Source: a virus
IMG/VR virus record: IMGVR_UViG_3300045988_151351
Span: 64,001-128,000 of that record
DNA: 64,000 nt
Direction: 5' to 3' (one strand)
The notes under the pieces were generated by a model, which was given only the letters and a program-made list of their open reading frames with translations, had not been told where the DNA came from and ran no database searches. Both the position numbers and the translations under genes were made by a program. Below are positions 1-63,999 of this stretch, piece by piece (within the stretch, counting starts at the first letter, position 1; each line of letters starts with the position of its first letter).

Positions 1-1
1 G

Positions 2-2668
2 CTTGATCCTATCCGCTGGGGTTTACCTTATTGGCGTTTTTTAAATAAAGAACGTGCTGAATTACCTGATATTGATATTGATCTTGCGCCAAGTAAACGT
101 CCTGCTATTTTTAAAGCAATTCGTGATGAACGTGGTGATTTAGGCTTAGTCCAAGTTGCTACATTTGGTACTGAAGGAACTAAATCTGCGGTATTAACAG
201 CTTGCCGTGGATATAGATCAGAAGATTTTCCAGAAGGTATTGATAATGATCAAGCACAATATATGTCTTCTCTAATTCCTCAAGAAAGAGGATTCTTATG
301 GCCAATTCATGATGTTGTTTATGGCAATGAAGAAAAAGACCGCAAGCCAATTCAAGCTTTTATTAGAGAAGTAAATCAATATGATGGCCTGTTAGATATT
401 ATTATTTATATTGAAGGTATTATTAATAAACGTTCTTCTCATGCTTCTGGTGTTATTTTATATGGTGATGATCCATTTGAAACAGCATCTTTTATGCGTA
501 CTCCCAGTGGTGATATTATCACTTGTTATGATTTGCATAAAGCAGAGGCAGCAGGCGATACTAAATATGATTTCCTTGTAACTGAAGCATCTGATAAAAT
601 AATTACTTGTTATCAATTACTATTAAAGGATAATCAAATCCCTGATTTACCTTTAAGAGAATTTTATAATAAATATATTCATCCAGAAGTAATAGACACA
701 ACAGATCAACGTATTTGGGATCACTTGGCGGCTGGCGATGTACTTGATGTATTCCAGTTCTCTACTGGAGTTGGATTAGCAATTGCTAAGAGATTAAAAC
801 CGCAAAATCCTATGGAAATGACGGCAGCAAATGCTATGATGCGTTTAATGTCTGAAAAAGGTAAAGAATCTCAGCAAGATAGATATTATCGAATTCAACA
901 TCAAGGTATTCAAGTATTCGACGCTGAAATGAAGCAAAATCATTTGCCACAAGATTTAATTGATAAATTTCATAAGCATTGTGATAAATATTATGGTTGT
1001 TGCCCTATTCAGGAACAAATGATGGAAATTCTTATGGATATTGCGGGATTTACTTTAGGTGAAGCAAATAGCGCTCGTAAAGTTGTTGCTAAAAAACAAA
1101 TGTCAAAGATTCCACAATTAAAAGAGCAAGTATTTAGTAAATTTGATGATCCTAAAGTTGCTGAATACTTCTGGGAAATTGCGGTTGCTCCACAATTAGG
1201 TTATGCTTTTAGTTTAAATCATTCTTTACCTTATTCTTTTGTAGCAATTCAAATGATTTATTTAGTAATAAATTATAATCCTATTTATTGGGATACCGCT
1301 TGTTTAATTGTTAATAGTGGTTCATTGGAAGATAATACGGAAGAAGAGCTAGTCGATATTTATGCTCCTGAAGGTGACGATTTAGCAAATGGTGTAACAT
1401 TTGAAGATTTACCAGATAAGAGCGCAAAAATTAGAAGAACTGCTTCAACTGATTATGGAAAAATTGCTAAAGCTATTAGTGATATTCAAAAAGCAGGTAT
1501 TGAAGTCGGTTTGCCAGATATTAATAAATCTAAGTTTGGTTTTGCTCCTGATATTGAAAATAATAAAATTCTTTTTGGATTAAAAGGAATGTTGAATGTT
1601 GGTGATGATTTAGTTAATACCATTATTACTAACCGTCCATATATTTCTCCAAAAGATTTTTTATATAGAATTAAGCCTAGTAAACAAGCTATGATATCTC
1701 TTATTAAAGGCGGTGCTTTTGATAATATGATGGATAGAAAATTATTAATGGGCTGGTATATTTGGGAAACTTGTGATAAAAAGAGTCGTATTACTTTACA
1801 GAATATGAGTAGCTTAATTAAATATAAATTATTACCAGAAGATACTGATAAGCAAATTATGGCTCGTCGTGTTTTTGAATTTAATAGATATTTAAAAGCA
1901 GTTTGTAAAGATACAGCAAGTTTTTATAAATTAGACACAAGAGCAATTAATTTCTTAGTTGAAATTGGTGAAGATAATTTAATTGAAGAGGGCACGAAGC
2001 TGGATCAAAAGATATGGGATAAAAAAGTCTATCAACCTTGGATGGATGTATTTCGCGATTGGATTAGCGAAAATAAAACAGAAATTCTTGAAAATTTAAA
2101 CGCAGTTATTTTTAAAGAAGATTGGAATAAATATACTGGTAAAAATAATTTATCAGCCTGGGAAATGGAAGTACTTTGCTTCTATTATCACAGTCACGAA
2201 TTGAAAGACATTAATAATAAAAAATATGGATTTGCAGATTTCTTTGCTCTTCCGCAAGAACCAGAAGTAGATAGAAGCTTCTCCAAAGGTGGTAAGACAA
2301 TTCATATCTATAAATTAAATACAATCTGCGGTACGTGTATTGCTAAAAATAAAACTAAAAGTACTGTTACTATTCTTACTACTACTGGTCCTGTTGAAGT
2401 AAAATTCAGAAAAGAATATTTCAGTTTATTTGATAAACAAATTTCAGAAAAAGGACCGGATGGAGTAAAACATATCGTCGAAAAGTCTTGGTTTAACCGA
2501 GGGAGTATGATTGTAGTTATGGGCGTGCGCCAAGGAGATAATTTTATAGCTAAAAAATATGCTTCTTCTCCTGGTCACCAGTTATATAAAATTGATGAAA
2601 TTTTTGATGATGGAACTATTACATTACGTAATACTCGTTATCAGGGAGGAATAGAAGAAGATGTATAA
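2..2668 (+). CDS. dnaE: DNA polymerase III alpha-subunit-like replicative polymerase, C-terminal part (5' end lies outside the window)
   Basis: The frame is open from base 2 and continues upstream of the track ORF 263..2668. Translation LDPIRWGLPYWRFLNKERAELPDIDIDLAPSKRPAIF...LVQVATFGTEGTKSAVLTACRGY recalls Pol III alpha core motifs (PDIDxD, GTExxKxA). About 890 codons contain no in-frame TAG. Confidence 0.7.
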   Translation, partial: LDPIRWGLPYWRFLNKERAELPDIDIDLAPSKRPAIFKAIRDERGDLGLVQVATFGTEGTKSAVLTACRGYRSEDFPEGIDNDQAQYMSSLIPQERGFLWPIHDVVYGNEEKDRKPIQAFIREVNQYDGLLDIIIYIEGIINKRSSHASGVILYGDDPFETASFMRTPSGDIITCYDLHKAEAAGDTKYDFLVTEASDKIITCYQLLLKDNQIPDLPLREFYNKYIHPEVIDTTDQRIWDHLAAGDVLDVFQFSTGVGLAIAKRLKPQNPMEMTAANAMMRLMSEKGKESQQDRYYRIQHQGIQVFDAEMKQNHLPQDLIDKFHKHCDKYYGCCPIQEQMMEILMDIAGFTLGEANSARKVVAKKQMSKIPQLKEQVFSKFDDPKVAEYFWEIAVAPQLGYAFSLNHSLPYSFVAIQMIYLVINYNPIYWDTACLIVNSGSLEDNTEEELVDIYAPEGDDLANGVTFEDLPDKSAKIRRTASTDYGKIAKAISDIQKAGIEVGLPDINKSKFGFAPDIENNKILFGLKGMLNVGDDLVNTIITNRPYISPKDFLYRIKPSKQAMISLIKGGAFDNMMDRKLLMGWYIWETCDKKSRITLQNMSSLIKYKLLPEDTDKQIMARRVFEFNRYLKAVCKDTASFYKLDTRAINFLVEIGEDNLIEEGTKLDQKIWDKKVYQPWMDVFRDWISENKTEILENLNAVIFKEDWNKYTGKNNLSAWEMEVLCFYYHSHELKDINNKKYGFADFFALPQEPEVDRSFSKGGKTIHIYKLNTICGTCIAKNKTKSTVTILTTTGPVEVKFRKEYFSLFDKQISEKGPDGVKHIVEKSWFNRGSMIVVMGVRQGDNFIAKKYASSPGHQLYKIDEIFDDGTITLRNTRYQGGIEEDV

Positions 2669-3233
2669 AATTGTAGCCATTATGGGCAAAGCAGGAAGCG
2701 GGAAGGATAGTCTTATGAAGGCTATCCTTCACCATGATACCGAAAAAAAATTAAATGAAATAATTAGTTATACTACTCGTCCAATTAGAGAAGGAGAGCA
2801 AGAAGGAATTAATTATCATTATGTTTCTAATGAAGAATTTTCTCAATTAGTATTAGAAAATAAAATGTTAGAAGCGACAGTATTTAACTCTTGGGGATAT
2901 GGTACTGCCATTAATTCATTAAATGAAAACAAAATTAATATTGGAGTATTTAACCCTGCGGGAGTTGAAAGCTTAATGAAAGATTCTCGTATTGATTTAA
3001 AAGTATTCTATATTGAAGCTTCAGACAAAGAAAGATTAATTCGTCAGCTAAGTCGAGAAAGCGATCCTAATATTGAAGAAATATTTAGACGTTTTAAAGC
3101 AGATGAAATTGATTTTTCTGATTTATCAGATTTTAATTATACTACTATTAATAATGAAATTAAAAAAGATTTTTATCCTGCTGTATATGCTATGGGAAGG
3201 CAAATCCGCGATTGGGCAGACGGATTTAATTAA
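2661..3233 (+). CDS. P-loop deoxynucleoside monophosphate (guanylate-like) kinase
   Basis: Walker A motif MGKAGSGKDS at the N-terminus. Size (190 aa) and position beside the polymerase and RNR resemble phage dNMP kinases. The start ATGA overlaps the polymerase stop. No TAG. Confidence 0.55.
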   Translation: MYKIVAIMGKAGSGKDSLMKAILHHDTEKKLNEIISYTTRPIREGEQEGINYHYVSNEEFSQLVLENKMLEATVFNSWGYGTAINSLNENKINIGVFNPAGVESLMKDSRIDLKVFYIEASDKERLIRQLSRESDPNIEEIFRRFKADEIDFSDLSDFNYTTINNEIKKDFYPAVYAMGRQIRDWADGFN

Positions 3234-3301
3234 TCTATAAGAAAAACCATATTTAGTAGACAGCTTAAAATTTTAATACTAAATATAGTGGAGGAATATA
3301 A

Positions 3302-5545
3302 ATGATTTATATTATAAAGCGCAATGGCACAATTGTTTTATTTGATAAAAATAAAATTATTAATGCTATTAATAAAGCATTTATTGAAGTTGATGGATAG
3401 CTTTATGAAAATGATACCGCTCAAGATATCGCTAATGATATTGAACGTCAAGTAAATTATTTCCCTGATGGTAGTGTAGGGGTAGAAGATATCCAAGATT
3501 GGATTGAAGATTATTTGATGCGCTCTGAGCGTCGTGATGTAGCTCGTGCATATATTAGATATAGATATAAAAAAGAAGTTGCTCGTGAAAAGAAAGATGA
3601 TTTTATTCAAGCCATTAGGAAAAAGCTTGATGGTAAAGATATTAAAAATCAAAATGCTAACGTTGATGAAGCATCATTTGGCGGACGTATTGGCGAAGCC
3701 AGCAGTGTAGTAACTAAACAATTAGCTTTAGATTATATCTTATCACCAATGGCAAGAGATAATCATTTAAATAATATGATTTATACTCATGATCTTGATG
3801 CTTATTATGTTGGTTCTCATAATTGTTTAAGTATTCCTTTTGATGATTTACTTGCTAATGGATTTAATACTCGCTAGACAGATGTACGTCCAGCAGGTTC
3901 AGTAAATACAGCTTTTCAATTAGTGGCTGTTATTTTCCAAATTCAAAGTCTTTCTCAATTCGGCGGCGTTAGTGCCACTCATCTTGATTGGACTATGGTT
4001 CCTTATGTAAGAAAAAGTTTTTATAAACATTGGAAAGACGGAATGCGTTATATTGAAAAAGTTGATTCATGTGGGAAAGCATCTAATCCAGAAAATTTAT
4101 CTATTGCTGATAATGGATATTTAGAATTTGAAAAAGCATATAAATATGCTATGGATATGACTATTAAAGAAGTCCATCAAGCAGTAGAAGGTATGTATCA
4201 TAATCTTAATACTTTACAATCTCGTTCAGGAAATTAGTTGCCATTTACCTCTATTAATTATGGTACTTGTACTCTTCCAGAAGGAAGAATGATTACTAAA
4301 GCACTTTTGGATGTATCTATTGAAGGTATTGGCAAATTACATAAAACTTCTATTTTCCCTTGCGGAATTTTTCAATGTATGAAGGGAGTTAACCGTGAAC
4401 CAGGTGACCCAAATTACGATTTGTTTAAACTCGCATTATAGTCCACCGCCCAAAGATTATATCCCAACTACGCGAATGTTGATTGGTCAGGGAATGCTGG
4501 ATATGATATCAATGACCCACGCACCTATTTTTCTACAATGGGATGTAGAACAGCCAATGGATACGATATTAACGGTTTCGGTCAGCTAAAAGATGGTCGT
4601 GGTAATATTTGCCCAGTAACTATTATTATGCCCACTTTAGCTATGGAAGCTAAAGAAATGGCAGATCATCAATATTTTGAAGATGGTTTAGATGCTCAAA
4701 AAGAACAATATCGTTGCAGATGTTTTATGAATTTATTAGATCAAAAAATTAATGAAGCAAGAATTCAATTGATGGAACGTTTTGACTGGATTTGCTCACA
4801 AGACCCAAAATCTGCAAAATTTATGTATGAAAATAATTTAATGGCAGGTTATATTCCAGAAGAAGGAATTAGAAGTGCCCTTAAGCATGGTACATTAGCT
4901 ATAGGATAGATTGGTTTAGCTGAAACTCTTCAAATTCTTATTGGATGCGATCATACTGATCCAAGAGGAATGAAAATGGCAAAAAAGATTGAAGAATTAT
5001 TTAAACAACGTTGTGCTGAATTTAAAGAAGAATATAAACTTAATTTTGGAGTATATTATACGCCAGCTGAAAATTTATGTTATACAGCAATGCAAAAATT
5101 CAAAGAAAAATACGGCATCATACCTAATGTTTCTGATAAAGAATTTTTCACTAATAGTATCCATGTTCCCGTATGGAAGAAAATTTCTCCCTTTGACAAA
5201 ATTGATATTGAAAGTCAGTTAACAGGTTATTCTTCTGCTGGATGTATTACCTATGTAGAATTAGATTCTACTGTAAAGCATAATATTGATGCTCTTGAAC
5301 AAATTGTTAATTATGCTATGGATAAAGATATCCCTTATTTTGCAGTAAATGTGCCTAATGATACTTGCCTTAACTGCGGATATTGTGATGAATTTAATGA
5401 TAAATGTCCTGAATGCGGTAGTACCAATATTCAATAGCTACGTCGTGTGACTGGTTATTTAACTGGAAACTACAAAACTGCTTTTAACTATGGTAAACAA
5501 AAAGAAGTAGAAGCACGAGTAAAACATACGGGGTAGATGGAATGA
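3302..5545 (+). CDS. nrdD: Anaerobic ribonucleoside-triphosphate reductase (class III RNR), read through 7 in-frame TAG codons
   Basis: Track ORFs 3515.., 3923.., 4238.., 4538.., 4970.. all lie in frame 2 and are separated only by TAG. Motifs are continuous: ...GFNTR-TAG-TDVRPAG..., SGN-TAG-LPFTSINYG, MGCRTANGYDINGFGQLKDGRGNICPVTI, and the C-terminal glycine-radical region RRVTGYLTGNYKTAFNYGKQKEVEARVKH. A GGAGG RBS sits 9 nt upstream of the ATG at 3302. The true stop is TGA at 5543-5545. Confidence 0.9.
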
Positions 5546-7048: not shown

Positions 7049-7073
7049 CGACTTTAAAATTTTTTGTTATAAT
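7045..7073 (+). promoter_or_regulatory. Sigma-70-like promoter with extended -10: TTGACG-17 nt-TGtTATAAT
   Basis: The sequence ttgacg actttaaaattttttgt tataat gives a near-consensus -35, 17-bp spacing, TG at -15/-14 and a consensus -10. It lies about 30 nt upstream of the GGAGG RBS and ATG at 7104. Confidence 0.5.
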
Positions 7074-8722: not shown

Positions 8723-9235
8723 ATGAATATTTTATTTTTAGATTTATCTACTAAATCTACTGGATATTGTATTTCTGATGATGCTGGTAAAATGATTACT
8801 TATGGTTTAATTACAGCATCATCAGAAAATAATATTTCAAGAATTGTTAAAATACAAACTGAAATTACAAAATTAATCCAATAGTATAAGATAGAAAAAA
8901 TTATAGCAGAAGATGTTCATCCCGAAGAATATGGTTACTCAGATACTGCAAGATTATTAATGTGGCTTTAGGGCGCAGTTATGTTAGGTGCGCATTCAGT
9001 TAATTCTAAAGTAAATTCTAAAACTTTAGAATTAATGTAGGCTAACGAATGGCGCCGTCAACTAGGAATTAAAGTAGGCCGTGGTATTAAACGATCAGCT
9101 TTAAAACCTTTAGATATTTAGTATGTAAAAGAACATTATGGTATTGAAGCAAATGATGATGTTTGTGATGCTATATGTTTATTTACTGCTTATTTCCTCG
9201 CGCAGTAGCAGCAAAATGATTATAATTGGGAGTAA
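8723..9235 (+). CDS. ruvC: RuvC-like Holliday junction resolvase, about 5 TAG codons
   Basis: MNILFLDLSTKSTGYCISDDAGKMITYGLITASSE... has the LDLSTKSTGY catalytic Asp motif. It continues EDVHPEEYGYSDTARLLMWL-TAG-GAVMLGAHSV...DDVCDAICLF (second acidic motif). It lies in frame 2, as does track ORF 8597..8884. Confidence 0.75.
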
Positions 9236-9312: not shown

Positions 9313-9756
9313 ATGGCCACTTTTATTGCTGAACATTTTATTGAAATTATTTTTGGACTTATTTCTGCTGGACTATTAGCATTTTGTAAATCAATTCATG
9401 GTAAAATGAAAAAGTATCAAGCAATGGTTGAAGAGCAGAAAAATGATGACCTAGATGAAAAAATTGAATCCCATATTGAGCCTATTAAAGAAGAAATAGA
9501 AGATTTGCGAAAATATATTAGAGAAGCAAAGACTATTGAAGAAAGTCATATGGAATTAATTATTGCATCTTACCGTTTTAGACTAACTCAATTGTGTCGT
9601 GCTTATTTAAAAAAGGGATATATGACTTCTAATGAGTATGAACAATTAACAGAGTTTTATAAAGTTTATCATGGGTTAGGCGGCAATGGGCAAGCCAAAA
9701 CTTATTATGATAAAACAATAAAATTACCAATTCAGCATGAAGAGCTTCCAAAATAA
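9313..9756 (+). CDS. Hypothetical protein with an N-terminal transmembrane helix (147 aa, no TAG)
   Basis: Track ORF with an AGGAGG RBS upstream. The hydrophobic N-terminus FIAEHFIEIIFGLISAGLLAF is followed by a charged, coiled-coil-like region. Confidence 0.5.
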   Translation: MATFIAEHFIEIIFGLISAGLLAFCKSIHGKMKKYQAMVEEQKNDDLDEKIESHIEPIKEEIEDLRKYIREAKTIEESHMELIIASYRFRLTQLCRAYLKKGYMTSNEYEQLTEFYKVYHGLGGNGQAKTYYDKTIKLPIQHEELPK

Positions 9757-13614: not shown

Positions 13615-14031
13615 TTATGATTTATTAATATTAACACTTGCTTCTATCTTTTCAGAAATATATTTATCTAAATCACCATAAATATTAGCAAGATAATCTT
13701 TTGCTTCTTGGCTAAGAATTGTTAATACTGCTTGCGTAGTTTGTTCAAATGCTTGCTTTTGAGCTTCTGCATCAAATTTGCCTTGTTTCTTTAGACTTTC
13801 TACATAAGTCTAATTCGTAGCAATAACACAACTATTAATTGTGTCAGTTAGCATTTGAATATATTTATTTGCTAATGCATTATCATTATTCTTTTGAATT
13901 TGATTACTTTTTACATTAATCCATTTAATAATAAAAGTAGTCAATACTCCTAATAATGGAATAATACATACTTGAAAAATTTGAGTTAGTAATTCACTAG
14001 TCATTATTATTTCCTCCTTAAGGTGTTCCAT
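13615..14031 (-). CDS. Putative holin (Phage_holin_1-like), 1 TAG codon
   Basis: Track ORF 13810..14031 has a TM segment (LLTQIFQVCIIPLLGVLTTFIIKWI) followed by ...SCVIATN-TAG-TYVESLKKQGKFDAEAQKQAFEQTTQAVLTILSQEAKDYLANIYGDLDKYISEKIEASVNINKS*, resembling Gram-positive phage holins (NQTYV...LKK.GKFD motif). It is the last gene of the minus-strand late region. Confidence 0.5.
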
Positions 14032-16812: not shown

Positions 16813-16815
16813 ATA

Positions 16816-19050: not shown

Positions 19051-19272
19051 TTATCCCTCATATCGAATCAAAATTTTTCCATTCACAACAGAAGGCATAG
19101 ATTCAGAAGTTGGAGAAAAAATAAACATATCATTAGTTATAACTTCATTAGCTGATGTACCATTTGTGACAGATTTTATTTTAGGGTTAGAGCTATTAAT
19201 AGCACTTTTAAATAAATCAACACTATTATCATCATCAACATAAATTGCTCTTAATAATTTAGGCTCACTCAT
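19051..19272 (-). CDS. Small hypothetical protein (73 aa, no TAG)
   Basis: Track ORF with an AGGAGG RBS, located immediately upstream of the radical-SAM pair: MSEPKLLRAIYVDDDNSVDLFKSAINSSNPKIKSVTNGTSANEVITNDMFIFSPTSESMPSVVNGKILIRYEG. Confidence 0.45.
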   Translation of the reverse strand: MSEPKLLRAIYVDDDNSVDLFKSAINSSNPKIKSVTNGTSANEVITNDMFIFSPTSESMPSVVNGKILIRYEG

Positions 19273-27130: not shown

Positions 27131-27331
27131 TTATTCTTCATACCATTCTTCTAATTCATCTTCTGGAACAAGAGGAGATACAGTATAATATTCTTTACCA
27201 TCTTTAGTAACTCGTTTACCATAATCAGCATATAATCTATACATTTTCATAGCAGTAACCCCAGGTAAATGAACACCAGTCTCAATCGTTCCATTAGTAC
27301 CTACATATCTATAAATTGTATCTTTTTCCAT
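27131..27331 (-). CDS. Small protein (66 aa, no TAG)
   Basis: Track ORF with an AAGGAG RBS, followed by a terminator. MEKDTIYRYVGTNGTIETGVHLPGVTAMKMYRLYADYGKRVTKDGKEYYTVSPLVPEDELEEWYEE. Confidence 0.5.
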   Translation of the reverse strand: MEKDTIYRYVGTNGTIETGVHLPGVTAMKMYRLYADYGKRVTKDGKEYYTVSPLVPEDELEEWYEE

Positions 27332-45360: not shown

Positions 45361-45522
45361 TTATTCCTCCTCTTGTTTTTGTTGTGTATTATTCTAACGA
45401 TAAATGAATTCTTTTAAACTTTTAATACATTCTCCCATTAAAATAGTATCTTCACCTTTCGTAGAAATACAAATTAATGTGTTATATAAAGCATTTAAAT
45501 AATTTAAATCCTCTTTATTCAT
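45361..45522 (-). CDS. Small hypothetical protein (about 53 aa)
   Basis: A GGAGG RBS precedes ATG 45522: MNKEDLNYLNALYNTLICISTKGEDTILMGECIKSLKEFIYR(Q)NNTQQKQEEE*. Confidence 0.3.
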
Positions 45523-45524
45523 TA

Positions 45525-50851: not shown

Positions 50852-50886
50852 AGGTGAGATCCATTAAGAATCTCACCTTCATTTTA
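50852..50886. terminator. Intrinsic terminator hairpin downstream of the tape-measure gene
   Basis: aaggtgagat ccattaag aatctcacctt. On the minus strand it is followed by TTTTCTTTTTGGG. Confidence 0.5.
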
Positions 50887-53800
50887 TTTACGATTAGCAT
50901 ATTGCGAAGCTACATTAATTAATGTGTTAAATGCTTCTTGAATTTCATTCCTATCAGTTACGTTCGGGAAGCTAGCATCAATATGAACCTATTGTTCTAA
51001 TATATCATTACCAGTTCCAAAAGTGCTATAAATTGGATTAATTGGCATTGTAGTATATCTACTGCGCAAATCAATCTCAGAAGCAATTTCACGAACCATC
51101 TTAATAGAACTTAGCATATTCTAAGTATCTTCTTTATTAAGAACTAATTCTTTTTCATGAAGCATTGCTAATTTACCACTATCGCCCCATTGACCAGTGT
51201 AACCACCAGTTCTAAAAGTCTTTCCTACAGTTTCTTCCCATAGCCAATCAGGAATTTGAGTAAAGTTAGTATATCCTGCAAATTTGCCTTCGCCTAATTT
51301 ATATCCTTTTTCATAGAAAGCATTAACACGAGCAGTAGATGCCATATCATTATAATTACCTTCTGACATCTTTCTATCACGATATGCTTTATATTTATTA
51401 TAAAGTTCCGATCCAACAGGTACAGTACCCATTAAAGCAGAATAGTCAACACTTGGATCATAATCATCATAATCAGAAGAAGAACTGTTGGAACCCGCAT
51501 CCATAGACGCTTGCGCGGCAATAGCCTATTGAATCTTACTAATAAGCTATTCATAATAAGAAATTAAATTCATAATTTCCTATCTCTAACGAGCATAGGC
51601 CTCAGTAGCATTACGAACAGCCTATAACTCTTGAGTTAAAGCAGGAACAACTTTATTTATAACTTCATCCTTCAGTTGGTCACTGGCATTAGTAACATCA
51701 TTAACTTTATTCTTAGTATCAACTAAATCTTTACCTACTAAATCAGTAAGTCTATCAGTTTCAGCTTGCCATTCTTGGAAAGCATTATTAATCTAACCAG
51801 TATAATCAATAATTGCTGTTTTCCATTGATCACCACTATCAATGATTTCATCATAAGCATTAACCCAAGCATCTTGAACTACACGAGAATCTTCTTCTTG
51901 TGCAATTCTATATAAATCACTAGAAGCTTGAATTAATTGAGTATATTCATCAATAATTCTCTGGCGGTCAGCTTGATAATTACCTTCACGATAAAGAGCG
52001 TCTTCATTAGCCTTTTCATCAATTTCTTTTAATTTTTCAGCTAATTCTTGTTCATATTGTAATTTCTATTGACCATATTTATTAGTAGCATCAAGGCGAA
52101 TATTATATAAATCATTCTCAGCATCAGCTAAAGCTTGCTAAGCATCATCTATCTTATCCTAATCCGCAGTATAAACATAACCAAAATTACCTTCATTATC
52201 GCGCTGTAAGCGGACCTTGCCCATCGCATTTTGAGCTTCATCTAGGGCAATCTAAGCTTGAAGAACTTTATATTTAGCTTGAGCAATATCCAACTCTAAC
52301 TAACTTAATTTATCTTTTTCTCTTAACTATTCGATTTCTTTAGAAAATTGATAATATTTATCTTTTGCTGCTTGATTATTAGTTTTATTACTAGCCTTAT
52401 TAACATCATTAAGTAATTTATTCATCTCATAAATTTGGTTAGTCTTTGTTAAATATTCGTCTTGGTATTTAGACAATCTATCCAAAGAATCATTTAAAGC
52501 ATCCCAACCCATACCATCAGTCATTGCTTTATTCATATTCTCTGCGGCTTGTTCCATTTTAGTAGTTAAAACTTCCTTAATGGCTTCACCATATGCTTCA
52601 GCATCTGATAGCATTTGTTCTTCTGCCTCATTAAATTTTGCTACAATAGCATCATAATTTTTTTGTAACAATTCTCTTTCAGCATCATCACTAGCCTAAG
52701 CGAGTGCCGCAGCCGCAGCATCTCTTTCAGCTTTAAGAGATTCATACCAAGCTTTAGAAGTATCAAACTTATTGCGTTTTGTCTAGGCATTACCTTCTAA
52801 TACAGTTAATACTCTTGTATAATCTGTATCTCTTCCCAATAGAGAAAGAATAGAACGATAATGATCTAATACGCTAGTAAGGTGCTCCATCTAATCAGTA
52901 TATTTAGATAACTCTTCTTCAGCTAAATCTAAAGTATTACCATAGTATTCAAGCATTTGTTTATCCAAATCTTGAACAGCTTCCAAATTATCTATTATAC
53001 TGTCATAAGCATCTTGTAAACCTTCTACATATGCTGCTTGTGAAATTTCTCCATTAGCATAAGAACTTTCAAGACTGTTATAATAATCTTCATAAGATTT
53101 CATCTTTCCAAAAGTAGGATCAATCTAACCTTGTAAATATCCTAATGCTTCAGCAGCCTTATATATATTATCTGATAATTTATTAAAGAAATAATCTAAT
53201 TTCTTTAGTTCATTATCATCTAATGTAATTTTAACTTCCAACTCGTGATTGAGAATTTCAAAATTATTATCCTACCACTCGTAGAATTTTTCTTCTGCCT
53301 AATCCTCTAAATCTTCAATTAAACTCTTAGTCTCTTCATATTGAGAAAGCGCAGATTTTAATTCAGCAATCTTATCTTCAATGGCTTTTAGAACACTTTC
53401 TTCATATTCATCCTGCGCTTCTTTAGTCTTTAAACTATTAATATGCTCTTCTGCGGCATGGAGTTCATCATAAAGACGAGTCATTTCCTAAGTATAATTA
53501 CTAATGTCACCATCTTCATCAAATTGGAAATTAACTCCTGCCTTTTTTGCAGCAAGTAAAAGTTCTTGTTTATCTAATGCTAAATACTTTTTAGCTTCTT
53601 CTGCTTTTTTATTGAGTAATCCAATTTCATCTTGAAGCATCTTATTATTTGCTTTCATCGCTGAAATTCTGGATCTACCCCACATGCGATCGGCAGCTTT
53701 ATTACCTTTATCTAAAGAGCGAGTTAAATCATGAATAGAATCATCTATTTCTTTATATCTATCTACTACATCAGATTTTTTAGTTAAATCTTTTTTACTG

Positions 53801-56800
53801 GCTTTAGATTTAGACCCTCCGCCTCCGCCACCTTGCTTAGCAGACGATGAAACATTTCCTCTATTTGAAGAATAAGTAGCAGCAGGTGTATTACCACCTT
53901 TTACAGTAGAACTAGTCACTTCTGGAGTTAAAGGATTATCTTCAGTTGAAATCTAAGCTACAGCAGCATATCCTTCAACTTCCATTGGAGGGCCAGGGAC
54001 AGAATACTTTTTAATTGGAGTATAACTTACAGTATGAGGAGTTCCATCTGCTTCTTCACCTTGTACAACAGTCTGTTCTGCTAATGGAATAATATGTTCC
54101 TCATAAGTAGGTACTTCCATAGGCTATTTGACGTAAGTTGTATCAACTTTAGCTCGTACCCCAAGAGATCCTAAGAAACCATTCATGTCCTCAACAGACA
54201 TACCAGTTTCTAAAGCCATTCTATTTACAGCAGCAATCCAATCGCCGCTCATAGCATCTCCAGATTTAATTAATCCATTCTAGATATCTTCTATCCCTTG
54301 TAATACAGTCGCTTTATCTGCCTCAAATTGTTCAGAATTTAATGAAAATCCAAATTCTACATCAGGTAAATTATTTACTTCATTAATTAAATCAGCAAAT
54401 CCCTAATTAAATTCTAAAGTTTTTACAGTTTCTATAGCAACCGCTTGACCTAATTGATTTATCGCAGCTATATCACCCTACATAGCTTTTTCAATCAATT
54501 TCATATTTTTTGTATTGAAAAATTCATCAGGTAATTTTAGATCATCACTGGCTCCGACTAAATCTGCGATAGCTTTTGTACAATCAACTACAGCATCTGC
54601 ATAATCTTCAGTTAATTTATCAGTAGAATTTAAAGCTTTCTTCCAAGTTTTCCAATTATCTACTAATGAAGAAACTCCTCTATTCATGCGCTAATTTTTA
54701 ACTGCTAATTTAGCGGCTTCTTCACCAGTAATTCCATAAGCTTTAGCCATTCTGCTGGCTTGAACTTCTAATGTATCTGCTTCAAGTCCATACTTATCTG
54801 CCGCCTATCCAATAATTACAGCAGCTCTTAAGTTATCTTCTGCAGCCTATTTGGATGCTTCATCATTAGATAATAAAGCTCTCTAATATTTTTCAATTTC
54901 CTCAGTACAATTATTATAAGCAGAAGCCAAATTAATTAATCCATTAGCATAGGATTGATAATCATCTGGATTCTCTTCTCTAATGGCATCTAATTCATTT
55001 AAAGAACTAGCATTTAAAGCTAAAACACTTAACTACTAATTATAAGCTGCTAAACCTACAGTTCCATTATTATATAATTCTTGTAATTCTCCTAAATTAT
55101 TCGTCATAGAAGCAATGACTTGTTCAGCCATTTCGCCATCATAATTACCATCTAAATAATTCTATCGAATATCTCCCAATTGAGTGTAAAAATTTTGCGC
55201 ATATTGTAGATAAGAATTATATTTTTCCTCACTAAATCCTGTTTTATTTTTTAAAATTTCTCCAGTTTCTTCATTGGTATAATCTAAAATATACTATGCT
55301 GCTTCCTATAAGCTATCTTTAGAAACTCCCATTAAAGCTAAAGAAGCATCTAAGCTACTATCATCGCTGGCAAAATTAGCAACAGAAGCAATATCTCTAT
55401 CTTTAGTAAATTTTCTATTGCCATTATCATCAAACCAATTAGTTTTATTAATAATGGCGCCTTCTTTATTTAAATTAGCAAATTCTGTCTTAATACCTTC
55501 AATACTTTCTTTGCTAGTACCACCTAATAACTAATCTAATGTTTTCTATTGTCCTAAGAATCTATAACCTTCTGAAGTTATCATAAATAATTCTTTTATA
55601 GCTGGATTAATTTCTAACAATTTTTTATAATCATCATCAGAAATTATATCATTAGTTTTTAAATCCTTAGTAATTGAAGATACATCTGAAATAGTTTTTC
55701 TAAAATTTTCTAACTATGTCTAAGCCTTAACTGTAGCTTTACCAGCCTAAGACATAAGAGTTATATAATACTACCAGTTTGCATTTGTAGTATCTAAATT
55801 TATACCCTAATCTATTATTAAATCATTTAATTTAGCTATGGTATTTGGGTCTCCCCAATCTATCGTTGATAATACATTAGATAATTTTTCAGCATCCTTG
55901 CCCGCGGTTTCAAATATTGATTCTAATAAATTAGCTGTATCAGTGCCTGACATATTAAAAGCTTTTTGTAAATTATCAGCCATTGATTGCGCGCCTGATA
56001 AAGTTAAATCAGAATTTTCTAAAAATCCCTTATTAATAGAACTTGATAAATTATTACCAATTGCAGTAAACTTATCATTATAACCATCTATAGCAGATAT
56101 TAAAGAATTAACATAGGCCTAGGCATTATCATAACCCATATTCTGAGCATCTTCGTCAGATATAATATCAGTAGCATTTTTCTTTCTAATATTACTTTCT
56201 AAGTCAATTACATTTTGTCTAGTAGCATTAGATAAATCAGCACTGGCTCCACCCGCCATACCAATCATAAAATTACCTAATCCTTTACCAAATGTTTCCC
56301 CAGTTTTCTCTACTCTTAAAAGAGTTTGATTATATTCTTCAACACTTCCATTAAGAGCATCAAAAGCTTCTTTTTGAGCTAAAGCTCTACGCGCTGTTTC
56401 GTCACTTAATGTAAAATCAGCTGATCCATCGCCTTTAGAATATACTCCAATATTTCCAGATTTATTTGCTACCCAAGTATATCCCATCATTTCAGCATAA
56501 GCTTTTTGTGCTGCTTCATCGCTCATCTAATGAGCATCATTGCTATATTTTTCATCATATAATCTTTTAGTTTCATCTGTTAAATTTTTTGCTAATAAAG
56601 TATTTAATTCATCTTTATGATTACTATTTTTATAAATTGAATTATCCTAAAAATTATTATTAACTAATTCTTTATTATTCTATAAAATAGCGGCAGTATT
56701 AGTAGAAACTTCAGAACATAAATTTTCTAATTGGGTAGCAGTCATACCCAAAGAAGAAATTAAAGATTTATTAGTGTCATCTAAACTATTATAAGCCTAG

Positions 56801-59800
56801 TCATAATTACCACCATTAGTAATATAAGCTTTTTCAAGAGCTTCTAAAGCATCTGACTATTGTTTGTCATTCTATCTTTGCTGCACATCTTGAGCAATAG
56901 CATCTGTCATTGCAATAATCAAAGCTGCTAAATTTGCTACAGCTGTTGGTAATGCTCCAACTCCACTAGCATATCCTGCTATAGTAAGAGCAGAACCTAC
57001 GCCAGCTCCGAAAGTTAAATTCTTTGATACTCGAGATCCAAAAGAGACATTATCTTTTTCGACAGCTTTACTGTTACTTAAGCTATTTGAAGCCATTGTT
57101 TTATTAGACTAAGCAGCTACATTATTCATTCTAGCATTTTCTAATTTTTGCTAATTATTTGCTATAGCCTTATCTAAATCTTCCTAATTAATTTCAATTA
57201 ATCCAGATTCAGCATTATAATGGCTAATTACACCATAAGTTTCAATCAAAGTTCTCGCTGCTTTATTAGCTTCAATAACTGCCTATTTAAATTCTTCTGT
57301 TCCTTTAGTTAATGTATCTATATTGTCCTATATTTCAGAATACTGATTTATAGTTTCCTATAAATTTTTATAAGCATTTTCTGCTTCAGATAATTTATCA
57401 GCAGCATCTTTAGCATCATTAGACATCTAATCAAAATGTTTCTAAGCTTTTTCAGAAATAGTATCTAAATTAGCTACAACTACTGCTATAACTGCTATTA
57501 AGGCTGTTAAAGCTAAAGATACCCATCCTATTGGACCTAAAGCCGCATTAAAAGCTGCTCCAAATCCTGCTACAGCGGGTGTAGCCCCTGCGGCGCTCGC
57601 TCCAGTTTTTATAATAGCACCAGACAATAACTAAAAAGTAGGAGCTAAAGTAGTGATCATCATTAATACTGTTCCAGCAATACTTAAAAATTTTTCCCAT
57701 CCTGACATATCAGGATCTTCTATAGTATTAACAATACCACCTATCATCTATAAAGCACTTACTACTGATAAGGCACTATTGGCACAAGTAACTAAATTAT
57801 CTGACCAAATTTTTTGTTTCCCCTATGCTTCAGCAAGAGCATCTCCTACACCCTTTATTCTACCCTATAAAGTGTCACTTTCCTATTTTAAACGCTATTC
57901 TGCGTTTGCTGTTTCTACTACGCTATTAGCATAATCTCTCATTTCTTTTTCACTAGACTAAGTAGCTTGAGCGGCAGATCCTATTACACTATCATTTATA
58001 TGAGTGAAAAGACCCAGTATAGACTAAAGCGTTTCTTCTAAATCTTCTGCTTTAATATCTCCGTTAGACAATTCCTAGGGTAATTTTTGCAATGAAGCAA
58101 TATCCTCATCAGAAATAATATCAATTCCTTCATTTTCTTTCATTGATGATAAAATTGTTGCAAACTATTCTAATTTATTTGTAACGTTAGTACTATCTTT
58201 ACCAATATCTTGAATAACTTTTCTTGCTTTGTCTAATCCCATTGTAGATGCACGAACTTTTTTTAACTATTCACTAGTTGCTCCTGCACTTTGACCTGGT
58301 GCGATATTGGGATTAGAAGCATTATTAGCATATATCTAAACCGCAGCATTAGCTTTTTTCTATTTGGCAATATCTAAAGCTTTAGCTGTTTCAATAGTCT
58401 ATTTTCCCTAAACATCAAGTTGATCCATCATTTGTTGAGTGACCTATTTTTCTAACTCACTCATTTGACCAACCTTATCTATCATCTTATCCTAAAGATT
58501 TAATTTCTAAATATAAAATTCACTAGCTGTACTATTAGCTGTAGTATCAGGAGTTGTATCATCATTGGCTAATACTTCAGCAGCATTTCTAATAAAGTTC
58601 TATTTTTCTGTTCTTACTTGTTGCTATCCTTGAGGAGTCATCATTTTTAAGTTATAAGCAATATTACTAATAGATTGAGCAATCTAATTTGAAAATACTT
58701 TAGTTAAAATAGCTCCTAAAGTAGTTAATACTCCTCCAAGGCCTCCAACAGTATCAATTAAATTATCAAAATAAGTGAGAAGTTTTTCAATAATATTTAA
58801 AGCTTTAATAAATGCTTTATCATCAACTAAATTAGCATAAATTCCTTCCCAAGCCGCGCGAACACGATTACGAGCAGCTTCCCAAGATTCAGCATAAATA
58901 TCAGCCTATTCCTATAAAGAACCATCGGCATTTTTAGCACGTTTAGCATTCTCTTTATAGAAATCATAATTATTCATTAAAGTCATTAATTGAGTGTATT
59001 GACGCACACCAGCTACAGTCTATGCCAAAGCCACCTAAGTATCTCTACTCCAAGTATTCCACTTAGTACCCATTTCATCTAAGATAACATCCATATCTTT
59101 TAATTGGCCATCAGTATCCTTAACTTCAATACCAACTTTATGTAAGGCAGTAGAATATTTATTTAAATCAGTACCATCATCTAGTGTCTCCCCTAACTTT
59201 AAACCTTGAATACGAGAGAATAAAGTTTTTAAAGCAGTACCAACTATATCAGCACTTTCACGAGTTGTAGCTGTAATCGTAGCTAAAGCTGCTGCCGCAT
59301 TATCAAAACTTAAACCAATAGTACTAGCAACAGAGGAGAACTTCTATAAACCTTCTGAAATTTCACTACTACTAGATGCAGTATCCGCGCCTAAACGTAC
59401 CATCGCATCAGCATAATGTTCCAAAGATTCAGAACCATCATAAAAGTTATTCCATACAGAAGTTAATTGATCAGAAATAGTGGTAGCACTTTCATTTGCT
59501 ACATTAGCCATTTTTAAAGTAATCGCTGTTCTATCTTCTACCTCTTTATCACTTAAACCCTATTGATAGTAAATCAAAGAAGCATTAGTATAATCTAATG
59601 TAGTTGCACTTAACGCTTTCGCAGCTTTATTTGCTCTTTCAGCAAATTTATCCATATAATCAATATTATGTCCAGTGACTATACGGATTTTATTTAAAGA
59701 TTCATTTAAATCTTTAGCATATCCATAAGCCGACTAAATAGCTCCTATAAATCCATGAAGCATACTAGATGACATCTGCCAACGAGCAGTATTCTTCAAT

Positions 59801-60216
59801 GAAACCCATAACTCCTATACAGCAGCATTAGAACGCTTAATTGGAATTTCAGCATTGGTAATAGATTGCGCTAATTGCTAAAATGCTTTTTGTCCGTCTG
59901 GACCTAATTTCTATAATTGTTCACCATATGCAGATAATGTCTTACCACTACGTTTTAATGATTCATTTAATTTAGAAAAATCTAAATTACCAGTATTTAC
60001 ATTAACAGCCTAATCTAAATGCGCTTTTAATTCAGCTACCGCAGTAGTAGCATCATTTAATTCTTTTGTTAAACCTAAGCCGGTTGATTGCTTAGTAGAA
60101 GTATTTACCAAACGAGTTAAAGAATTCTACAATTCTTGTAACTAACTTCGTGCGGTTCCGGTGTCCGCAGTAAAAGCTAGATTAACTGTATATTCTTTAT
60201 TCAAACCTTTTGCCAT
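50884..60216 (-). CDS. Tail tape-measure protein (about 3110 aa, many TAG codons)
   Basis: An AAGGAG RBS precedes ATG 60216 (MAKGLNKEYTVNLAFTADTGTARS...), a TMP-core-like N-terminal region. Nine track ORFs between 51121 and 57627 all share one frame (coordinates congruent to 0 mod 3). Gaps 52672-52890, 53485-53490 and 57097-57441 were checked and hold only TAG. The protein is long and alpha-helical/coiled-coil, with hydrophobic segments near 56872-57627 (GAGVGSALTIAGYASGVGALP..., LALTALIAVIAVVVANL). It ends ...QYANRK* at TAA 50884-50886. Confidence 0.5.
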
Positions 60217-60345: not shown

Positions 60346-60879
60346 TTAACCCAATTTCTCAACAACGTTCTTCAATAAAGTAAGATTCTCTGGATCAGCT
60401 AATTTCTTTTGAATTTCAGTAGCATCAAGATTCAAATTACTATAATCACGTCCAATAGAATCAAGAATACCAAGCGCGGAATTGCGATAAGTATAAATCG
60501 CGGTTGCCAATTCATGAGTCACTTTTGTTAAATAATAAAATTCGCTTTCAGGAACTAAGCCAATAATTAAGTTAAGTAATTTATTACTACTTAATAAATC
60601 ATATAACTTCATTGGGTCTGACTTTTGCTTTTCTGTAAAACTAATATTAGAATAAGCATAGACAATCTCTAAAGCAAGCCACATATCTAATTTAAGATTA
60701 TTATAATATCCAGCATCATCATCAACTGAATTATTTAATACTCTTGAAATTAATTCTGCTTTTTCCGCAATTGGAAGATATTGCTTTACTTCAACTGTCT
60801 GATCATTAAATTCTACAGTTTGAAATTCATCTAATTTGTCTTTAGTTAAACCTAATTTTGAAAATGCTATCTTTGCCAT
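60346..60879 (-). CDS. Tail assembly chaperone-like protein (177 aa, no TAG), immediately upstream of the TMP gene
   Basis: Track ORF MAKIAFSKLGLTKDKLDEFQTVEFNDQTVEVKQYLPIAEKAELISRVL... Its position relative to the TMP gene and its size fit a gpG-like chaperone. Confidence 0.4.
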   Translation of the reverse strand: MAKIAFSKLGLTKDKLDEFQTVEFNDQTVEVKQYLPIAEKAELISRVLNNSVDDDAGYYNNLKLDMWLALEIVYAYSNISFTEKQKSDPMKLYDLLSSNKLLNLIIGLVPESEFYYLTKVTHELATAIYTYRNSALGILDSIGRDYSNLNLDATEIQKKLADPENLTLLKNVVEKLG

Positions 60880-60945: not shown

Positions 60946-61992
60946 TTAAATCTAAAATTTTACTCCGATTTTTTTATCTTCATAATCTTTTAGCAAATTA
61001 TCTAAATCTTTCTCCAAATATTTGGATAAATTTGTAGTAACTTGTTTTACTTTACCAGGTTGAGTTACTTTTTCTTTAAAAGCTGATAAAAATTCAGTTT
61101 CATTAGCATTTTTGAAATCTTTTTTAATCTACTAGATATATTTATTAATCTAATACATACCCATTAAACCAGCGCGCTATGTTTTTACTGCATATTGTAC
61201 ACTCTATTCATTATCCGCCGTTACGTCTCCTAAAAAGAAACCTAAAGTATTATCAACACTTAACATACCATTTTTACTATCTGTAATATAAAAACCGACT
61301 CGATTTTCTAATCCGCCAATCCCAGTAAAAGGAATTTTATTTATATAAAAATTAGCATAAGCTTCAGCAATAGTACCTCTATTATTAATTTTTGCTCTCC
61401 CCCATTCACCATCATCTTTTCGCCAGAAAATAGGTAAACCTACGCTCTTTTTAAATCTCGCTTTCGCAATTTCCCATCTATCATATACTGAATTAGCAGT
61501 TTCATCTAATAGAGTACTATCATATTCTTCAGCTTCTAATTTCAGCATATCTTCTATTCCATTTATAGAATATTCTAAAGACTAGTACTAATTTTCTACT
61601 ACATGAGATAAATCATTGTCTGATAATCCAATCTAAAAACTACCATTTTCATCATGATATACATAGGTCATCACAATCTTTTGACCATAATAGGCATTAA
61701 ATAAATTCTAAAAATTAAAAAATTTTTCATATAATTCTCTTTCCATAGAATAAATTTCTTGCCGTATAGAACTTATATCCTATTTATTCTTTTTTAAAGA
61801 CCTTTTAATTTTAATTAATTCATGATATTTAGTATATTCTTTTTCAAATATCTCTAATGCTTCCATAACTTGAGTAGTAGTAACTGCTAACTCAGAATTT
61901 AAAGATTGCTATACTATCTGAGCTAACTCTTTTGTACTAATGCTGACCATCTCTTGAGCAACATCAGTTAAATTAAAATTTTCGATAGCCAC
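60946..61992 (-). CDS. Hypothetical tail-module protein (about 348 aa), GTG start
   Basis: An AAGGAGG RBS lies 9 nt upstream of GTG 61992 (VAIENFNLTDVAQEMVSISTKELAQ...). It runs through track ORF 61204..61548 and two TAG codons into a 74-codon C-terminal extension (...MGMYQINKYIQQIKKDFKNANETEF...) ending at TAA 60946. Confidence 0.4.
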
Positions 61993-62062: not shown

Positions 62063-63244
62063 TTACTTGTTTTCTTTATCAAGTTTAGATAAAAGTTCAT
62101 CTAGTTCGTTCTTTTCTTCAACTACTGTTGTTTCTTTCGGAACTTCTTTGATTACCCTTTTTTCTGCTTTCTTAATTACTTCAGGTTTCTTTTCAGCACT
62201 GGGTTCAGACTTTACAACCCAATGTTTACCTTTAATAATCATAAATTAATCAGTGAAACGAGCGTTGTGACTGGCATCATGAACAGTCTGAGTTCTATGA
62301 ATGTCACTAGCGCCGCCTTCCTCAATAATCTGAATAGCAGCAAGGACTTTCTTACTGTGGTCGAAACGAGTATAATCAGGGAATGCGTCCATAGTAAATG
62401 TGAAAGTAGAAGGATCGCCAGAAGAAGCCATTGTGAAAGTAAAGTTAGACTGAATCTTGCAGTTAGGAATTATAAATTCAGCAGGCATATCAACACCATT
62501 TTGATCACGGAATAAGGTAGAAGCTTCAAGATAATAGTTACCACCGAATTTATCAGCAGTAATTTCAATCTGTTGAGCACCACTAGCTTTTTCAGTATAA
62601 TAATCAACAATAGCACTATCATATGCTGCAGCTGCTGGAAGACCATTATGTTCATCAAAAGTATAATCACCTGTACCAGCAACATAATCATCATGTGGAG
62701 TTTTAACAACTAAATCAAAATATTCATTGCCATTAGTATCCTTTTTAGCAGTTAACTCCTCATGGACAGGAATAAAAGGTTCAGAAATAATTTCGCCATC
62801 TTTGACAAACATAACATAAGCGAAATTCTCTTGATTACCAGTTGGAAGATAAGGCTTTTTAGAAACACGAATAGTAACTTGTCCTTCAGTAGTTGTACTA
62901 TCAATTTGTGCCTTATCTACAGTTTCAGTGATATGCTGTTTAATAGTACTATCAGCACTTGCTTCAATTAAACCGGCACCAGAAAGAATCATAAAACCTT
63001 CTGGAGAAATAAGAGCATCTTCCATTGTGAAAGTAACAGTTCTTTCACCTTCCCAAGCTACTAAACGAGCATTACCACGGCCACCTTGAGCATATACAGT
63101 GGTAGCTGCGCCTTCCATGCTAGAAGTCTTTAATGTATCGAAATAGATAACTGGTTCATTCTTATAGAAGATTTTATTACCGATCTTTTGAGCTGCTTTA
63201 GCCTTCAAAACAACATCGCAAATCTCACGAACACCAAATTTCAT
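62063..63244 (-). CDS. Major structural protein (about 393 aa; major tail tube/sheath or other abundant virion protein) with a Lys-rich C-terminal extension after a single TAG
   Basis: Track ORF 62246..63244 (332 aa, AAGGAGG RBS, MKFGVREICDVVLKAKAAQKIGNKIFYKNEPVIYFDTLK...) has no internal TAG. Its TAG at 62246 is followed in frame by FMIIKGKHWVVKSEPSAEKKPEVIKKAEKRVIKEVPKETTVVEEKNELDELLSKLDKENK* (TAA 62063). It is bracketed by terminators and sits two genes upstream of the chaperone/TMP. Confidence 0.5.
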
Positions 63245-63267
63245 AGGTTATTTTCCTCCTTATAAAT

Positions 63268-63999
63268 TTAATGGATATTTTTCATCCAATTCTCCGGCTT
63301 GTTATCTGACTTAGCGCCAGCCAACCTAGACCGGATATCAATATCCCAATTAATATAAAGCTAATATCTCTCAACAAGGTCAAAAAGTTGGAACATTGTT
63401 AAATCCATTAAATCCTGTAGAGACATAGAGTTCAAACCTACAGTAAGCATTGAAAGATACTAACTAAATATACTAGCATTAGCGTTACCATTTAATTCAG
63501 CAACGCGCTAGCGCCCACGCATTAATTTATCAGCAATTTTTTTAGCTGTCTCATTAGCAGGATTAAATCCCAATTCTTGCGAAGCACTAGATTTAGCACA
63601 AAAGATTTCTCTAGTAAGAGATTGTAATATCTCAAAACTACTTTCATCAATCATACTTGTATTATCTTCTCCCTAAAGCATAATACTTCTAGGAGTAAAT
63701 AATATTTTTTTATTTGGAAATAATAATGTAAGAAATTGACGAGTAGCATATTTTTTATCTGCCATTTCCTTTTCCTACATCATTGTCATAAATATCTAAA
63801 AATTACTTGTATTTCTTAAAAGACTTTCGCCCTCGTTTATATGTAAATTATCTTTGTTAATACAAAAACACTACATTCCTATAAAAAAGTCTTGTTCTCC
63901 AACATAAGCAATTTCACGGATTTTAGGCTAATGAATAATTGATTGTATTTCAGGAACTGGAATATCAGTTCCGCACATAAGCGCCAATCGTATATCCAT
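63268..63999 (-). CDS. Hypothetical structural-module protein (at least 243 aa; may start beyond the window end)
   Basis: MDIRLALMCGTDIPVPEIQSIIH(Q)PKIREIAYVGEQDFFIGM(Q)CFCINK... has about 8 TAG codons and ends ...KPENWMKNIH* at TAA about 63268. Confidence 0.35.

Follow-up and report, generated by a model that had tools for sequence, protein, structure and literature searches.

In a 64,000-nucleotide stretch of viral DNA (IMG/VR record IMGVR_UViG_3300045988_151351, positions 64,001 to 128,000; this whole stretch is called the window below), TAG is a glutamine sense codon (genetic code 15) whose use is strongly uneven from gene to gene. The codon is avoided in the gene for a DnaE-type DNA polymerase III alpha-like protein (Pol, g01), in a gene for a virion structural protein (g44) and, in relatives, in a capsid-like gene, and this avoidance is the result of selection and not of chance, slow evolution or recent transfer. 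We consider it probable that two classes of genes avoid TAG, those of the core replisome, which would be needed early, and those of abundant virion proteins, for which the avoided burden would be a translational cost.

Genes were called with only TAA and TGA treated as stops, which gave 45 genes that cover 97.1% of the window (G+C content 29.6%), 37 of them ending, by construction, in TAA and 8 in TGA. An index of open frames (frames of at least 100 codons summed over all six frames and divided by window length), which is crude and may exceed 1, rose from 0.49 under the standard code to 1.07 with TAG as sense, so that coding density is restored once TAG no longer counts as a stop. Opposite the in-frame TAGs of the window (5,699 aligned positions), relatives of at most 90% identity show glutamine in 29%, glutamate in 11%, TAG in 8.5% and lysine in 8%. 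The residue spectrum opposite CAA and CAG codons is the same, and TAG is accordingly decoded as glutamine. The 45 genes hold 360 TAG, 474 CAA and 55 CAG among 20,694 in-frame codons. TAG occurs once in every 57 codons and has a 40.5% share of these three codons, referred to here together as glutamine codons. At least one TAG is present in 37 of the 45 genes (82%).

An initial annotation made from the letters of the window had described TAG usage as strongly uneven, and the counts bear this out (TAG against CAA/CAG by gene, chi-square P = 5e-8; Monte Carlo P = 4e-4 without Pol and g44). The heterogeneity persists after gene boundaries are corrected, contrary to the possibility it had raised that density might then prove uniform. 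Six genes that have glutamine codons contain no TAG at all, against 1.5 expected (P = 0.002). By module, the TAG fraction of glutamine codons is 21% in the plus-strand module (30% without Pol), 39% in the middle block and 45% in the tail and structural block.

The polymerase gene (2..2668, plus strand; PHROG DNA polymerase, 5e-166; Pfam DNA_pol3_alpha, finger and HHH_6), whose 5' end lies outside the window, has 888 visible codons of ordinary codon usage, with 30 CAA, 6 CAG and no TAG. The Poisson probability of this is 2e-7 and the binomial probability on glutamine codons is 7.7e-9, about 3e-7 after correction for 43 genes, in agreement with the earlier statement that chance cannot explain the polymerase. 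The g44 gene (62246..63244, minus strand; PHROG 2729 virion structural protein, 2e-55) has 7 CAA, 5 CAG and no TAG (P about 0.002, or 0.09 after within-window correction). Its 332 TAG-free codons, taken at first for the beginning of a longer gene, are the whole gene.

The same pattern recurs in relatives, for which we collected 57 loci around relatives of the polymerase and 80 around relatives of g44. Pol is free of TAG in nearly all 57, including recoded ones with TAG in neighboring genes, and one TAG is present among 364 glutamine codons pooled over 12 lineages; the avoidance is not absolute, since the full-length polymerase (1331 aa) of a 99%-identical relative uses TAG at 2 of 52 glutamine codons. 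In the same neighborhood, the gene for the anaerobic ribonucleotide reductase NrdD has 13 TAG in 329 glutamine codons over 12 lineages, and the gene for the RuvC-like resolvase has 39 in 95 over 10 lineages and is TAG-rich in every recoded relative, even where the rest of the module is without TAG. The head module lies outside the window; in the 99%-identical relative, a gene at the capsid position (369 aa) and its neighbors of 304 and 198 aa (h304 and h198) are TAG-free, and TAG does occur in the genes for the portal and the connectors. Over 23 recoded lineages, TAG accounts for 2 of 311 glutamine codons in the capsid-like gene, 5 of 310 in h304 and 4 of 239 in g44, compared with 163 of 519 in the portal gene, 178 of 363 in g45 and 905 of 2466 in the giant open reading frame (ORF) g41 (TAG-free set against the rest, Fisher P = 1e-134). 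TAG-permissive neighbor genes of recoded relatives have TAG fractions of 31-49%. The comparison gene g45, directly upstream of g44 (63268..63999, minus strand), is itself permissive, with TAG at 8 of 15 glutamine codons in the window.

The decisive control was a tally of codons at alignment columns with conserved glutamine. The 19 such columns of Pol contain 122 CAA, 61 CAG and 1 TAG, with turnover between CAA and CAG in 18 of the 19; those of g44 contain 46 CAA, 60 CAG and 1 TAG, and those of the capsid-like gene 47 CAA, 102 CAG and 2 TAG. In these two genes as well, nearly all such columns alternate between CAA and CAG. The corresponding tally for g45 is 59 CAA, 5 CAG and 82 TAG, and in g45, the portal gene and c355, TAG is present in all or nearly all conserved-glutamine columns. 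Since CAG, a single transition away from TAG, is abundant but TAG is almost lacking, TAG must have been removed by selection.

These data make it scarcely credible that the TAG-free genes are simply short or poor in glutamine codons and that density is otherwise uniform. Such an explanation does hold for the 73-aa gene g25 (19051..19272, minus strand) and the 66-aa gene g31 (27131..27331, minus strand), both of which lack TAG as first noted but have no CAA or CAG either and say nothing on the question. Taken singly it is also plausible for four genes with 4-6 glutamine codons each and no TAG: the guanylate/dNMP kinase gene g02 (2661..3233, plus strand; PHROG guanylate kinase, 1e-34; 190 codons, 0 of 4, P 0.04-0.13), g12, which has no function label (9313..9756, plus strand; 147 codons, 0 of 6, P 0.04-0.13), the tail-tip or fiber-like gene g34 (36933..37616, minus strand; Pfam Phage_tail_C; 0 of 5, P 0.02-0.13), which has 227 codons and not the 230 first assigned to it with an end at 37625, and the 177-codon gene g42 at the chaperone position (60346..60879, minus strand; 0 of 5, P 0.04-0.13). 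The TAG-free state of g02 and g12 is attributed to chance because both are TAG-rich in relatives (4 of 6 and 5 of 5 for g02; 3 of 9 to 5 of 10 for g12) and is not conserved; g42 is moderately depleted in relatives, with 20 of 129 over 21 lineages. The short, glutamine-poor TAG-free genes of the window other than Pol and g44 thus appear to be TAG-free mostly by chance. For Pol and g44 themselves, chance is refuted by the counts (P about 1e-8 for Pol), by pooling over lineages and by the conserved-glutamine columns; the overall heterogeneity, the excess of zero-TAG genes and the conservation of the pattern across lineages speak against it as well.

A historical explanation, in which Pol and g44 were recently acquired from a source with the standard code or evolve too slowly for TAG to have arisen, gains something from the high conservation of Pol, g44 and the capsid-like gene, whose products rank among the most conserved proteins (identity of 85-93% to the nearest group), and from the DnaE-type polymerases that are shared with standard-code SPbeta-like phages at 39% identity. 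We regard it as very unlikely. The G+C content of Pol, overall and at third codon positions, matches the rest of the genome, synteny is kept in the 57 relatives, and the turnover described above, with one third of codons CAG and 1 TAG in 184, took place without the accumulation of TAG. The h304 protein is as divergent as the portal protein (69%), yet its gene is TAG-free. Recent horizontal transfer of Pol is ruled out by composition, synteny and synonymous turnover.

The genes that avoid TAG differ in their remaining codon usage. In g44 and the three head genes, C-ending codons make up 11-25% of two-fold families, compared with about 8% elsewhere, and G-ending lysine and glutamate codons 33-60%, compared with about 15%; CAG is at least as frequent as CAA in all of these except the window's own g44. 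This expression-type bias is absent from the polymerase. Across genes, stronger C-ending bias goes with a lower TAG fraction (Spearman rho = -0.45, P = 0.005). The suggestion that highly expressed genes lack TAG therefore stands for g44 by its codon bias, but as a different force from the gating of late genes with which it had been joined. On the replication side, the core replisome of the 99%-identical relative (GyrA, GyrB, ligase, SSB-like protein, ATPase, DnaB, primase and Pol) uses TAG at 11 of 145 glutamine codons, compared with 50 of 93 in the RecJ-like, Dda/RecD-like, RuvC-like and homing-endonuclease-like genes (P = 2e-15). Individual accessory genes have 14 of 18 (RecJ-like), 6 of 17 (Dda/RecD-like) and 5 of 11 (RuvC-like; g11, 8723..9235, plus strand, PHROG resolvase).

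The nrdD gene (g03, 3302..5545, plus strand), labeled from the annotation of its 41%-identical homologue in phage phAss-1, had been cited with its seven TAGs as a case against a simple division into early and late genes. Seven is the number counted, mostly aligned with glutamine in relatives. However, at 7 of 35 glutamine codons in 747 codons, TAG is depleted in this gene (20% against an average of 40%, P = 0.009), and the gene is almost TAG-free in relatives, as given above, so that it behaves like a TAG-poor gene with TAGs newly gained in this lineage.

Under the two-class reading, TAG would in most genes be a nearly neutral synonym of CAA that settles at about 40-50% of glutamine codons. 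Core replication proteins, of which Pol is the clearest example and whose genes are ordinary in codon usage, would form the first class, being needed at the start of infection, while the cell presumably still terminates at UAG and the suppressor tRNA is scarce. The most abundant virion proteins (g44 and, in relatives, the capsid-like protein and its neighbors) would form the second, with the codon bias of heavily translated genes and a preference for CAG. A phage tRNA that must compete with release factor 1 may decode UAG more slowly or with more leakage, and such a cost would matter only at very high expression. The decoder would be a tRNA-Gln-like tRNA with anticodon CUA whose gene, not part of the window, closes a tRNA array downstream of a block of small TAG-free genes.

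This block was seen in the 99%-identical relative, of whose 125,780-bp contig 96.1 kb were read in eight overlapping loci (1-40,509 and 70,182-125,780); the other 29.7 kb correspond to sequence inside the window. Between 97.5 and 122 kb, that contig carries a block (about 22 kb) of small same-strand genes that are essentially TAG-free, with CAG as common as CAA; about 27 of 29 genes supported by a ribosome-binding site contain no TAG, and 1-3 TAG are present in about 110 glutamine codons. We infer that these are early genes. The block (L282:10000-20225, L283 and L289) also has a G+C content of 38-47%, compared with about 30% elsewhere, and includes an AbrB-like gene as well as pairs of paralogs. 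The ends of the contig do not overlap, and it breaks off shortly ahead of the tRNA array: a same-strand array lies downstream of the small-gene block in the relatives at 93%, 83% and 73% identity, and in the first two it begins about 6 kb beyond the point at which the 99%-identical contig ends. In the 73% relative (L295) the array holds 24 tRNAs, the last of which has the anticodon CUA, an unpaired 1:72 position and G73, features of tRNA-Gln like those of the phAss-1 suppressor. A tRNA(CUA) is also present in the homologous array of a more distant relative (L291) and in phAss-1. The suppressor locus that had been anticipated is thus found in relatives and not in the window, where ARAGORN and Rfam detected neither a tRNA nor any Rfam family; ARAGORN at relaxed settings yielded only noise within coding regions. 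The layout of a TAG-free block followed by an array with a CUA suppressor fits a start under the standard code and a subsequent code switch.

That layout is also what one would expect from purely temporal gating, in which TAG-free genes are early, TAG-containing genes are held until suppressor tRNA accumulates, and nothing further is needed to explain the pattern. Borges et al. (10.1101/2021.08.26.457843) have published such a model, and the TAG-poor core replisome agrees with it. As the entire explanation it is nonetheless unlikely. Besides Pol, the strongest consistent avoidance is in late virion genes, namely g44, the capsid-like gene and h304; genes for primase, the RecJ-like and Dda-like proteins, NrdD, NrdG and dUTPase carry TAG; and the holin gene (g20, 13615..14004, minus strand; PHROG holin, 5e-35) is TAG-poor, with 1 of 12 glutamine codons (binomial P = 0.018) and 1 of 23 in relatives. 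Nor are TAGs concentrated at the 5' ends of genes, as their relative positions match those of CAA and CAG (Kolmogorov-Smirnov P = 0.24). Simple gating of late genes, a proposal that the initial annotation had found to fit the pattern, is thus only partly supported: the TAG-free block before the tRNA array and the TAG-poor core replisome agree with it, and the TAG-free g44 and capsid-like genes do not. Promoter class, against which TAG content was to be compared, was no guide, since a sigma-70-like consensus scan of the window found 5 sites matching 11 of 12 positions, compared with 6.6 expected, with no link between such sites and TAG content.

It is also conceivable, if quite improbable, that the number of TAGs sets protein yield adaptively through leaky read-through, so that low-copy virion parts (the giant ORF, portal and connectors) are TAG-rich and high-copy parts TAG-free. 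The drop in TAG fraction with rising expression-type bias is in line with such dosing, as are the 91 TAGs of the giant ORF g41 compared with none in g44, just upstream in the same-strand gene block. However, permissive genes have close to 40-50% TAG whatever their copy number, which resembles a mutational equilibrium, and the 7 TAGs of the portal gene cannot yield a capsid to portal ratio of roughly 50-fold.

Several points weigh against the two-class reading. The labels early, late and abundant derive from gene order, homology and codon bias, and g44 is probably the major tail protein by its position; searches of its function by sequence against solved structures, by Pfam, and by AlphaFold (predicted local distance difference test score, pLDDT, 54) with Foldseek gave nothing. 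The capsid-like gene and the early block of small genes are known from the 99%-identical relative and not from the window. ARAGORN and Rfam found no tRNA and no suppressor in the 96.1 kb of that relative, and the parts read of the arrays in the 93% and 83% relatives contain 11 and 17 tRNAs, respectively, none with a CUA anticodon. Conserved genes tend to be TAG-poor, so that protein conservation is a partial confounder, although h304, at only 69% identity to its relatives, counters it. Translation of the 3110-aa ORF needs 91 consecutive read-throughs, which calls for very efficient suppression late in infection and weakens the argument from cost. The base at position +4 differs between TAG and CAA (P = 6e-5) and resembles that of CAG, which leaves any signal of release factor 1 unclear. 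Finally, among the families that crAss-like phages recode by preference is one of tail-tube proteins (Borges et al.), in contrast to the TAG-free g44 at the tail-tube position.

A further and more tentative interpretation, to which we give somewhat less than an even chance, is that the reassigned stop stays costly throughout infection and that genes are sorted on two independent axes, time of need and amount of product. If this is true, release factor 1 would never be fully neutralized, the axis of amount would cover capsid, tail-tube and decoration proteins and the axis of time the core replisome, and the TAG content of a gene could serve as a proxy for its expression class in uncultured recoded phages.

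Uneven use of recoded stops is already published, and the present case is an instance of it in a clade with recoding already described (Borges et al.; Babkin et al. 2023, PMC10607447); its cause is still a matter of hypothesis in the literature. Code-15 phages with such uneven use include crAss-like, Lak, Garnet and Topaz phages and others (Ivanova 2014; Yutin 2021, PMC7886860; Peters 2022, PMC9523058; 10.1101/2021.08.26.457843). Borges et al. found recoded stops to be concentrated in the genes for structure and lysis, with lysis genes preferentially recoded in crAss-like phages, their use in replication genes to be variable and intron endonucleases within early genes to be heavily recoded; in their proposal, recoding serves to gate late and lytic genes. 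The phage described here resembles these phages in that TAG aligns with glutamine, TAA and TGA serve as stops, a suppressor tRNA(CUA) is present (here in relatives), structural genes are rich in TAG and those of DNA replication, at least of the core replisome, are poor in it, and homing-endonuclease genes in the replication module are heavily recoded. It differs in belonging to another clade, of large siphovirus-like phages related to phAss-1 and EF1, in the spread of TAG into many replication-associated genes, and in its abundant virion proteins, which form conserved TAG-free islands within the late module. The published preference for structural and lysis genes does not hold for its holin gene, which is TAG-poor and not preferentially recoded, or for g44, the capsid-like gene, h304 and h198, which are TAG-free; other structural genes use TAG.

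The closest described system is phAss-1, for which Babkin et al. reported reassignment of TAG to glutamine, three tRNA(CUA) genes and a 3149-aa tape measure protein, and proposed a Phassvirus group. Shared features are homologous Pol (37% identity), NrdD (41%) and g44-like genes, TAG as glutamine, a giant gene of about 3100 aa for a tape measure or, in the present phage, a tape-measure-like protein, and a tRNA(CUA) of the same tRNA-Gln-like type (in relatives of the present phage); the phAss-1 homologues of Pol, NrdD and g44 are also without TAG. In contrast, protein identity is only 37-50% with no match at the nucleotide level, TAG occurs in 28% of phAss-1 ORFs compared with 82% of window genes, and the phAss-1 suppressor tRNAs adjoin nrdD, where the present 64 kb contain none. 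A close relative of the window also has a long block compatible with the standard code and a recoded remainder, like the block-wise dual coding described with Mgcod (10.1101/2022.06.29.495998), but the TAG-free Pol, g44 and capsid-like genes are scattered single genes within the recoded part. A 2026 preprint (10.64898/2026.08.21.746148) reports the capsid gene of one crAss-like genome to be without TAG. Highly expressed phage structural genes show expression-type codon bias, as do g44 and the head genes in addition to their avoidance of TAG; what goes beyond this precedent is that the avoided codon is a reassigned stop, and that the avoidance is conserved over 23 lineages with a control for synonymous turnover. 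Our literature search turned up no study that systematically describes abundant virion genes as conserved TAG-free islands. What is new is the two-class picture and the evidence that simple gating of late genes is not sufficient. No new kind of system is revealed; the published gating model is refined, with testable predictions on read-through efficiency, release factor 1 and protein abundance, and the result is of practical use in annotating such recoded genomes. The window and roughly 150 relatives form a clean natural data set in which orthologues can be traced through unrecoded, lightly and heavily recoded lineages.

The window represents roughly half the genome of a large, siphovirus-like code-15 phage in a clade with phAss-1 and, farther off, Enterococcus phage EF1. 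Protein matches were to phAss-1 (OQ749652, filed under 'Caudoviricetes code 15 clade'), to EF1 and its relatives and, for the polymerase, to SPbeta; a nucleotide search of 25 kb of the window against GenBank phages gave no match. A crAss-like origin is ruled out by these matches to EF1, phAss-1 and SPbeta-type phages. Relatives (L155-L186) sit in metagenome-assembled genomes labeled Tenericutes, Bacteroidales, Bacilli, Clostridium, Gastranaerophilales and others, most likely as mis-binned phage contigs, and this mixture of labels does not point to a host. Between the polymerase gene and g44, the window is about 10 kb longer than the 99%-identical contig.

A plus-strand module at 1-9,756 encodes the DnaE-type polymerase, the guanylate/dNMP kinase, NrdD, NrdG, a probable dUTPase and the RuvC-like resolvase. 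Nearly all of the remainder is on the minus strand and encodes the holin, two radical SAM enzymes, giant tail-region ORFs (1344, 2591, 1748 and 3110 aa) and the virion structural protein. The giant ORFs have no PHROG function and no match in family or phage databases. The 2591-aa ORF (g32, 27343..35118, minus strand) has TAG at 39 of 93 glutamine codons, one per 66 codons, and not the more than 50 TAGs first attributed to it; the 1748-aa ORF (g40, 45522..50768, minus strand) has 39 of 72; and the 3110-aa ORF (g41, 50884..60216, minus strand), probably tape-measure-like by its size and position, has 91 of 189, one per 34 codons, with 50-94 TAGs in each homologue of the relatives. An early estimate of one TAG per 40-60 codons in the long structural genes was too narrow, as the range is from one per 34 to one per 80, with one gene at one per 191. 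If g41 is a tape measure and the usual 1.5 Å per residue applies, the tail would be roughly 450 nm long. The 348-aa gene g43 (60946..61992, minus strand) has TAG at 12 of 21 glutamine codons and is absent from the 99%-identical relative.

Identical promoter-like sites (TTGACG, 17 nt, TATAAT) lie at 7045-7073 (plus strand) and 60937-60909 (minus strand), 30 nt upstream of g07 and g42, respectively. The consensus scan also gave terminator-like hairpins on the minus strand at 62055-62029, after g44, and at 60302-60267, after g42 and just before the giant ORF. At 15079-19272 (minus strand), the radical SAM/4Fe-4S enzyme genes g23 and g24 adjoin the 73-aa gene g25 and the repeat-rich g22 (DTPYRDY repeats), and g22-g25 could be a peptide-modification cluster within the phage. 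A lone plus-strand gene among minus-strand genes (12919-13569) encodes a protein with a response-regulator receiver and a LytTR DNA-binding domain.

Other tRNAs and insertions were seen in the relatives. One of them, at 55% identity in the polymerase, encodes a TCA-anticodon tRNA (L042:20872-20943), possibly an opal suppressor, in which case the clade may include TGA-recoded members. The array of a relative contains a tRNA with the ochre-type anticodon TTA (L295:13937-14009, also L297:5269-5341), though TAA is the main stop of these phages. In nine relatives (L024, L025, L044, L046, L051-L054 and L058) about 1.08 kb of extra sequence lies within the polymerase gene (match of about 3.7 kb, compared with 2.67 kb), which may represent an intein, or else an intron that carries a homing endonuclease. 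In the 99%-identical relative, the DnaB-like helicase gene is in two parts (L029:2-2304; parts at 2-805 and 1765-2304) with a GIY-YIG endonuclease gene between them (898-1608).

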